A stretch of 64,000 nucleotides of DNA, from NCBI RefSeq assembly GCF_003991155.1, contig NZ_CP031293.1. One strand, given 5' to 3'. Position 1 is the stretch's first letter. Every line of letters begins with the position of its first letter. The notes beneath the pieces are model-generated. The model made no database searches. It saw only the letters and a list, made by a program, of their open reading frames with translations, and had not been told where the DNA came from. This document shows positions 50,828 through 51,444 of the stretch, piece after piece. A program made the translations under genes and the position numbers. This DNA is from Escherichia coli (GTDB lineage Bacteria; Pseudomonadota; Gammaproteobacteria; Enterobacterales; Enterobacteriaceae).

Positions 50828-51208
50828 TTACAGCTCATAGGGTGTGACGACACCTGCTATTCCCGCAAAATCTCTCGTATTTCGCGTTACCAGTTCAAAG
50901 CCATAAATCTGTGCTGTTGCCAGAATAATGGCATCTGGAAGTTTCATTCTATACTCCTGCCTTAAAGCAACGCTTCGTTCCGCGATATCCTGCGAAATCC
51001 CAATAACGTTAAACGCACTCATTGCAATCCGTGTGCGATGTTCTTGATCATATTTTTTTGCGCCAACCAGCACCTCCATCCATGTGACCAGACTAATCGC
51101 ATTCTGTAGGGGCCATGCCTCCAGAGCCTGTTTTGCCTCAATTCGTCCGCTGAACAAATCGATAAGGATATTGGTATCAAAAAGCGCAGTTCTTTTTGCC
51201 ATTACCAT
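50828..51208 (-). CDS. PIN-domain ribonuclease toxin (VapC-like); start overlaps the stop of yiiF
   Basis: 126-aa ORF with the four PIN acidic residues at D11 (LFDTNILID), E45, D92, D113; ATG-GTA-ATG overlaps the yiiF TAA. Confidence 0.7.
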
Positions 51209-51444
51209 TCCTCACGCAGCTTACGCTGATATTCGACACCATCTTCCTCACACCCTTGCCAGATACCAAAAGCACTGGATATTGTCGTTTTCGATTGATT
51301 TTCCAGATATTGATCTACAGCTTCTCGTAATAGCTCTGCGCGAGGAAGATTGCGCTGCACTTTGAGATCATCAAGTCGCTTAATCACCTCATCGGATAAA
51401 TCGAGTAAAATTCTGCCCATATCCATACCTGCCATAGCGCTCAT
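51202..51444 (-). CDS. yiiF: Ribbon-helix-helix (CopG-like) protein YiiF; candidate antitoxin of the downstream PIN gene
   Basis: Start placed at [27 protein letters not shown], preceded by GGAGG 7 nt upstream; the track ORF extends further upstream (51498). Confidence 0.75.

Follow-up and report, generated by a model that had tools for sequence, protein, structure and literature searches.

The gene yiiF of Escherichia coli K-12 encodes a protein of unknown function. In the window analysed here (64,000 nucleotides of E. coli contig NZ_CP031293.1), the same gene is directly followed by an intact gene for a PIN-domain protein. This raises the question of whether the two genes form a toxin-antitoxin (TA) module, and whether K-12 has lost the toxin half of it. 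A preliminary description, made from the DNA letters and a list of open reading frames, had proposed a complete VapBC-type module and had left the situation in K-12 open. The features of the locus are the following.

fdhE stop at 50791, plus strand: end of the fdoH-fdoI-fdhE genes.
50805..50826: GC-rich hairpin CCGGGTGGCGCAGGTCGCCCGG, read from the sequence; it separates the fdhE stop (50791) from the vapC stop (50828), which are convergent.
50828..51202, minus strand: vapC, PIN-domain toxin gene, 124 aa counted from the second ATG (Pfam, PDB, RefSeq, tetrad conservation).
50828..51208, minus strand: longest PIN ORF, 126 aa (ORF list).
51202..51444, minus strand: yiiF (vapB), RHH antitoxin gene, 80 aa (Pfam, PDB, paired position).
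51445..51462, minus strand: operator-like element GATATAC-TGGAG-GTATAT, directly 5' of the yiiF ATG (conservation).
51537..51555, minus strand: TGGAAAACGCCTCGCAAAA, a conserved block that precedes the yiiF start by about 92 nt (pattern match).
51664..51888, minus strand: yiiE, paralogous RHH gene without a toxin partner (BLASTP, DNA alignment).

The sequence and the ORF list display three small minus-strand genes, the PIN ORF, yiiF and yiiE, convergent with fdhE. The RHH ORF at the yiiF position had been described as ending in a TAA that overlaps the start of the PIN ORF, and this was seen in both: the minus-strand junction is GAG GAA TGG TAA, interleaved with ATG GTA ATG. The first ATG of the PIN ORF (51208..51206) produces a seven-base overlap with yiiF. 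The second (51202..51200) shares one base with the yiiF stop codon (51204..51202), giving TAATG. The 126-aa toxin of the preliminary description does correspond to the longest ORF (50828..51208), but the true start of vapC is probably the second ATG (51202), leaving a protein of 124 aa. Indeed, this codon is the likelier start because AGGA is located 6-7 nt 5' of it, because RefSeq annotates a product of 124 aa and because the N-terminus of the crystallised Klebsiella pneumoniae orthologue aligns there. The co-orientation of yiiF and vapC and their TAATG overlap imply that the two genes would be translationally coupled. Hairpin CCGGGTGGCGCAGGTCGCCCGG, beyond the end of vapC, is invariant across all E. 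coli allele classes; it was not called by the terminator scan because it has no T-run.

Each of the two ORFs was assigned to a family by Pfam. The toxin ORF matched PIN (PF01850, E=5.1e-19, residues 9-118) and YiiF matched RHH_1 (PF01402, E=7.6e-6), which forms its N-terminal DNA-binding domain. The acidic tetrad of the PIN protein (D11, E45, D92 and D113) was found at the positions initially reported, which become D9/E43/D90/D111 in the 124-aa numbering. It is conserved in homologues, with D11 kept in 81/81, E45 in 79/81, D92 in 78/81 and D113 in 78/81, two of the non-matching homologues being truncated sequences. The closest solved structure is a complex of VapB with VapC, PDB 7BY2: its chain B ('Ribonuclease VapC') matched the toxin with E=9.2e-63, and its chain A ('CopG family transcriptional regulator') matched YiiF with E=1.1e-36. 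YiiF also matched PDB 2K5J ('uncharacterized protein yiiF') with E=1.6e-39. The toxin has 100% identity to RefSeq WP_001129490.1, which is named 'type II toxin-antitoxin system VapC family toxin'.

The toxin missed the cut-offs of the NCBIfam VapC equivalogs, scoring 28.8 bits against 80 for NF047959 (TA_toxin_VapC), and 28.9 against 140 and 19.7 against 143 for the tRNA(fMet)-specific VapC models NF047863 and NF010285. By its similarity profile, it is classed as a VapC-family PIN protein of a subfamily other than that of the tRNA(fMet)-cleaving enteric VapCs. Therefore, the RNA target of those enzymes cannot be transferred to it. VapC, YiiF and YiiE had no family match in PADLOC-DB 2.0. A literature search retrieved nothing linking yiiF to antitoxins, and no experiment on the E. 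coli proteins was present in the searchable literature.

The association of the two genes was also followed across species, in a scan of one genome per species. A yiiF homologue was located directly upstream of the PIN gene in 80/80 of the best loci listed; none of these is from Escherichia, although E. albertii and the cryptic clades carry the pair. Among the matches listed, at least 46 enterobacterial species have the pair beside fdhE as in the window, including Citrobacter, Klebsiella, Salmonella diarizonae, Enterobacter, Kluyvera and Franconibacter. In our view, the cassette has long resided at the fdhE locus across Enterobacteriaceae. A tblastn search of 72,556 plasmids gave no genuine homologue on an enterobacterial plasmid. 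Two enterobacterial matches in the plasmid set correspond to a 5.37-Mb record, evidently a chromosome, and to a 425-kb Citrobacter freundii record. On the same search, a role in anti-addiction against plasmid copies was rejected.

Altogether, the RHH gene in first position, the overlapping PIN gene, the full tetrad and the RHH-PIN pairing in the best 80 loci listed bear out the initial designation as a VapBC-type module. We estimate at about 85% the probability that the Escherichia pair yiiF-vapC forms a canonical type II VapBC operon, orthologous to the VapBC of K. pneumoniae. It is a conventional VapBC, already annotated as a pair in RefSeq, and its orthologue has already been crystallised and assayed.

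The adjoining yiiE had been called a paralogue, in agreement with 44% identity by BLASTP (E=4e-15). DNA alignment revealed that it is a tandem duplicate of yiiF that includes the upstream region. E. albertii, E. fergusonii and the cryptic clades carry it as well; among the loci listed, other genera do not. In Citrobacter, Klebsiella, Salmonella diarizonae and other non-Escherichia loci (L011, L012 and L068 among them), a LexA-box-like sequence, CTGTAT-N4-ATACAG (CTG-N10-CAG), was observed some 190-200 nt upstream of yiiF. It directly precedes a divergent hydrolase gene, at the place where Escherichia has yiiE.

Upstream of yiiF, two sharply conserved blocks stand out from otherwise diverged DNA in 19 aligned loci. 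One is the operator-like element, in which ATATAC (51461..51456) and GTATAT (51450..51445) form an inverted repeat that encloses the Shine-Dalgarno GGAG. A single match to GATATACT-N5-TATAT is present at this site in each of 24 enterobacterial and 3 Acidobacteria loci and in every intact E. coli locus, and the pattern is missing from all orphan-type E. coli loci. One acidobacterial locus has three TGATATA(C/T) repeats at the same site. GATATAC-N5-GTATAT is likely to be the operator of the RHH antitoxin. The element also reads as an extended -10 (TGnTATACT), of which it could be a part; a sigma-70 scan returned no coding-strand promoter upstream of yiiF.

The other block, TGGAAAACGCCTCGCAAAA, recurs as TGGAWAR-N4-YYGCAAAA at equal distance in most syntenic enterobacterial loci, and a second copy (51975..51993, minus strand) is found at equal distance upstream of yiiE in Escherichia. 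A sigma-54 promoter at 51537..51555 was considered for its GG-N10-GC spacing but is unsupported: its TGGAAA is without the conserved C of TGGCAC. In a genome-wide RpoN promoter list, the fdoG/fdhD spacer is the sole entry nearby; the locus is not mentioned in a second paper on sigma-54, and the literature search did not link yiiF to sigma-54. A structured leader RNA or RNA family was also rejected (fold z-score -0.77; no Rfam match at E<=1).

The fate of the module within the species was surveyed in 5,426 complete E. coli genomes. Full-length vapC was present in 56 and absent in 98.97% of them. In 53 of these 56 carriers the gene is identical to that of the window, and in 3 it has one substitution, which is synonymous in the 2 of the 3 that were examined. 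yiiF is much more widespread (4,734/5,426 genomes), but its window-type allele (at least 99% identity) is confined to the same 56 genomes as vapC. An allele 80-90% identical to that of the window was found in 4,687 genomes, with an intact ORF and an unchanged tail. About 86% of E. coli genomes have an orphan yiiF, and about 12% have lost both genes.

Alignments resolved the locus into four states: intact; toxin deleted; toxin deleted with a REP element; and whole module deleted. In the second state, vapC lacks about 213 bp internally and a further 15 bp. The third has identical deletions and a REP/BIME-type insertion. The REP core GCCGGATAAGGCGTT is a dispersed repeat, with 5 copies elsewhere in the window against 0.16 expected. 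Copies of the REP core, GCCGGATAAGGCG, were noted elsewhere in the window at 15224, 20290 and 30453..30651; at 30453-30651, three tandem copies with about 92-bp spacing form a BIME-like cluster. In the fourth state, a single deletion took vapC and yiiF together. About 650 genomes, Nissle 1917 and ATCC 11775 among them, are of this type, and the 59-nt edge retained in it is identical to the intact allele. By alignment, the whole-module deletion allele is a derivative of an intact-type allele. Both genes having been lost in about 650 genomes, their loss is therefore survivable. Addiction may be weak, or the toxin may have been inactive already before the whole module was lost; we counted this against the VapBC operon as the explanation.

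K-12 MG1655 belongs to the REP-bearing type, and alignment to it settled the question left open at the outset. The PIN partner is not kept: yiiF is intact, and vapC, with an internal deletion and a REP insertion, persists only as relics of its 5' end (about 25 nt) and its 3' end (about 75 nt). By this comparison, K-12 YiiF is the predicted antitoxin left by deletion of its VapC toxin, an orphan VapB. E. albertii and cryptic-clade Escherichia have an intact yiiE-yiiF-vapC-fdhE arrangement. E. fergusonii has an orphan yiiF, with the internal vapC deletion and the REP insertion of K-12 but without the 15-bp deletion (L100/L101, 3244..3586). The deletion common to E. fergusonii and K-12 indicates that the toxin-less allele is therefore old or was passed between species. 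The order of events conflicts between markers when E. fergusonii is compared with K-12, which implies recombination among alleles. The E. fergusonii YiiF protein is also a mosaic: its N-terminal half resembles that of K-12, and its C-terminal half is of the intact type.

The paired and orphan alleles of yiiF differ in their divergence. Against Citrobacter sp. R56, 10.5 nonsynonymous differences were counted for the paired YiiF and 24.7 for the K-12 orphan. Between the window and K-12 alleles there are 17 nonsynonymous differences, 0 of which fall in the last 21 codons, those of the tail. The dS between window-type and K-12-type yiiF is 0.28. Overall, orphan alleles differ from paired ones by a dS of 0.28-0.37, which exceeds the local divergence within E. 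coli or from E. fergusonii (0.07-0.11).

The intact cassette itself is nearly uniform. In six carriers, divergence reaches 2.3% over 6.4 kb of left flank and 3% over 2.3 kb of right flank, which equals the spread among non-carriers, whereas vapC has 1 variable site in 381 bp against 32 in 930 bp for fdhE. In the comparison of E. coli with E. albertii, fdhE/fdoH have a dS of 0.26-0.28, vapC of 0.11-0.13 and yiiF of 0.00-0.02. The paired yiiF of E. coli, the cryptic clades and E. albertii (L098/L099, 2759..3001) has 0-1 differences in 51 synonymous sites. An intrinsic synonymous constraint on paired yiiF was rejected, as dS was never below 0.14 in 72 species pairs from other genera. In these 72 pairs, the dS of yiiF is often higher than that of fdhE, and in one pair fdhE has 0.20 against 2.1 for vapC. 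The presence of a near-identical cassette in diverged flanks suggests exchange between Escherichia lineages or species by homologous recombination.

We propose tentatively, and with the odds against it, that yiiF-vapC is a locus-bound selfish element, fixed at fdhE, exchanged by recombination and re-entering toxin-less E. coli. The unchanged tail of the orphan YiiF would then reflect standing immunity or a regulator in its own right, and not a decaying relic.

If yiiF-vapC is a VapBC operon, it would work as follows. By sequence, the tail of YiiF (21 residues) is the counterpart of the VapC-binding segment in the crystallised orthologue. By extension from this orthologue and from general VapBC biology, YiiF dimers would bind VapC via the tail and block its active site. 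The YiiF-VapC complex would repress its own operon, probably at TGATATAC-N5-GTATAT, over the ribosome-binding site and start codon. Depletion of YiiF would free VapC, a presumed metal-dependent endoribonuclease, and lead to growth arrest. K-12 and the majority of E. coli have lost vapC to an internal deletion, which left YiiF as an orphan antitoxin. Survival of the intact allele is limited to about 1% of E. coli, E. albertii and the cryptic clades, and it appears to move between lineages by homologous recombination.

Three other explanations were weighed against the VapBC operon. The module might be domesticated or attenuated. The intact PIN protein would then not arrest growth but serve as a low-activity or specialised RNase, housekeeping or regulatory, and YiiF would be mainly a transcription factor. 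Long vertical synteny, with the pair beside fdhE in at least 46 enterobacterial species among the matches listed, is unusual for a purely selfish TA module, and we counted it against our main explanation. The lack of genuine enterobacterial plasmid copies points in the same direction, as do the tolerated loss of the toxin in about 86% and of both genes in about 12% of E. coli, and the orphan YiiF that is intact in 4,687 genomes with an unchanged tail. However, the active site is fully conserved, and the 80%-identical protein of K. pneumoniae is an active RNase according to a review (PMC12652419). Overlapping genes and a conserved operator-like repeat are, in addition, typical of true TA modules. 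We consider domestication unlikely for this pair.

Similarly improbable, in our opinion, is that anti-phage abortive infection is the main role, with VapC being freed when infection stops host transcription. Defence against phage is common among type II TA modules. The variable interval that holds the cassette is low in GC (36-47%, the flanks having 52-57%), and in other strains the same interval carries other TA genes. However, no PADLOC defence model matched, no phage or defence-island genes adjoin the cassette, and it is not part of a mobile element. Such a role would also be compatible with a VapBC operon. Finally, a non-expressed, function-less remnant heading for the same decay as in K-12 would fit the 98.97% of complete E. 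coli genomes without vapC, but is very improbable given that 56/56 carriers have a full-length gene, 53 of them identical and 3 with one substitution, that vapC is under purifying selection (dN/dS of about 0.1 against E. albertii), and that the operator-like motif is retained only in carriers.

Several observations were made in the neighbouring regions. The low-GC stretch (36-45%) between yiiE and fabY contains a 617-aa ORF (52556..54409, minus strand) that had no match in Pfam, NCBIfam, PDB or PADLOC. Its homologues are only 'hypothetical proteins' of Escherichia/Shigella, and its AlphaFold model has a mean pLDDT of 33.7. It contains a CX5R phosphatase-like motif, VVMGCKSAKDRT, which presumably recalls the active site of SopB/IpgD. 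In a genome with 100% identity, PGAP annotates two features in place of this one uninterrupted frame, a 'transposase' and a partial pseudogene, apparently in error. Coverage of the region reaches 80% or more in about 1,061/5,426 E. coli genomes, and K-12 has only a remnant.

The yiiE-fabY interval as a whole is a variable hotspot with other TA-like pairs elsewhere: HigB/HTH in isolate SC477 (L088, 13454..14217), and NadS with a RelE/ParE-like gene in 21AH126, CU39ES-1 and AVS0710 (L093, 9916..10518; L094, 9467..10069; L096, 11764..12367). An alpha/beta-hydrolase gene occupies the interval in some strains, and a divergent alpha/beta-hydrolase-like gene is also found immediately upstream of K. 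pneumoniae yiiF. Further away, between yiiG and fdhD, a two-gene insertion (39785..43928, minus strand) encodes a hypothetical protein of 768 aa and an ATP-binding protein of 611 aa. Several strains have this insertion; K-12-like and O157 loci lack it. The N-terminus of the 611-aa ATPase has only weak PADLOC TmtA matches (E=5.7e-6). The two proteins may form an uncharacterised accessory or defence pair.

If the assignment is right, a K-12 gene of unknown function gains an identity: yiiF would be a VapB antitoxin whose VapC partner was deleted, and yiiE a toxin-less tandem duplicate of it. There is also a practical consequence. When proteins of this VapC family, including the K. pneumoniae orthologue, are assayed for toxicity or inhibition in K-12-derived hosts, chromosomal YiiF may buffer the toxin. 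The K-12 protein has an identical C-terminal tail of 21 residues and may neutralise the toxin of the window. Four locus states side by side, together with an allele that looks recombinationally mobile, offer a compact natural system for the study of TA decay and spread. Relative to known VapBC systems, the additions made here are the orphan-VapB identity, the warning about buffering in assays and the evidence of cassette movement by recombination.

Among known systems, the enteric tRNA(fMet) VapCs (Shigella pINV MvpT/VapC, PDB 3TND; Salmonella LT2 VapC) have the PIN fold, the tetrad and the type II TA layout in common with the window pair. They are nevertheless remote from the window toxin in sequence (phmmer against PDB, E about 0.003; PRK13725, 19.7 bits against a cut-off of 143), and their antitoxins are of the AbrB type, not RHH. 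FitAB of Neisseria gonorrhoeae has the same architecture as YiiF-VapC, an RHH antitoxin whose C-terminus covers a PIN toxin. A PDB search with the toxin gave no FitAB match at E<=0.01, and the likeness is one of architectural analogy and not of close homology.

The closest system is the VapBC of K. pneumoniae (PDB 7BY2/7BY3), which has been studied experimentally, while the E. coli YiiF and VapC are known here from sequence. Both pairs occupy a common locus adjoining fdhE, with overlapping RHH-PIN genes and an equal tetrad, and they are 80% identical in the toxin and 78% in the antitoxin. The antitoxin tails are near-identical (DGMEYQRQLRKEW in the tail comparison), but the K. pneumoniae protein has a 2-residue insertion in the linker. 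Klebsiella is also without the yiiE duplicate and has a divergent alpha/beta-hydrolase gene upstream instead. In K. pneumoniae ATCC 13883, the translations of the genes adjoining fdhE are the sequences aligned from 7BY2 chains A and B; 7BY2 is therefore the positional orthologue. A review (PMC12652419) covers the structure that Kang et al. 2020 obtained for the VapBC of K. pneumoniae, as well as the VapB-derived peptide GMEAQRQL, and reports that the K. pneumoniae VapC is an active RNase, freed by disruption of the VapB-VapC interface. GMEAQRQL is the Y-to-A version of GMEYQRQL in the tail of 7BY2 chain A, a match that links 7BY2 to Kang et al. 2020 (J Med Chem, PMID 33146528).

YiiF of E. coli K-12 and Shigella (b3890; NMR structure 2K5J) is the product of the same gene at the same position. 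It has the RHH fold, 81% protein identity and a C-terminal tail of 21 residues identical to that of the window YiiF. Unlike the window protein, the K-12 YiiF is an orphan, with nothing left of vapC but relics and a REP insertion among them. When compared with outgroups, its allele has about 2.3-fold more nonsynonymous change, and the operator-like palindrome is degenerate in this allele. Orphan antitoxins from degraded TA loci are already known, for instance in K. pneumoniae (PMC7192599), and K-12 YiiF would be another of this kind.
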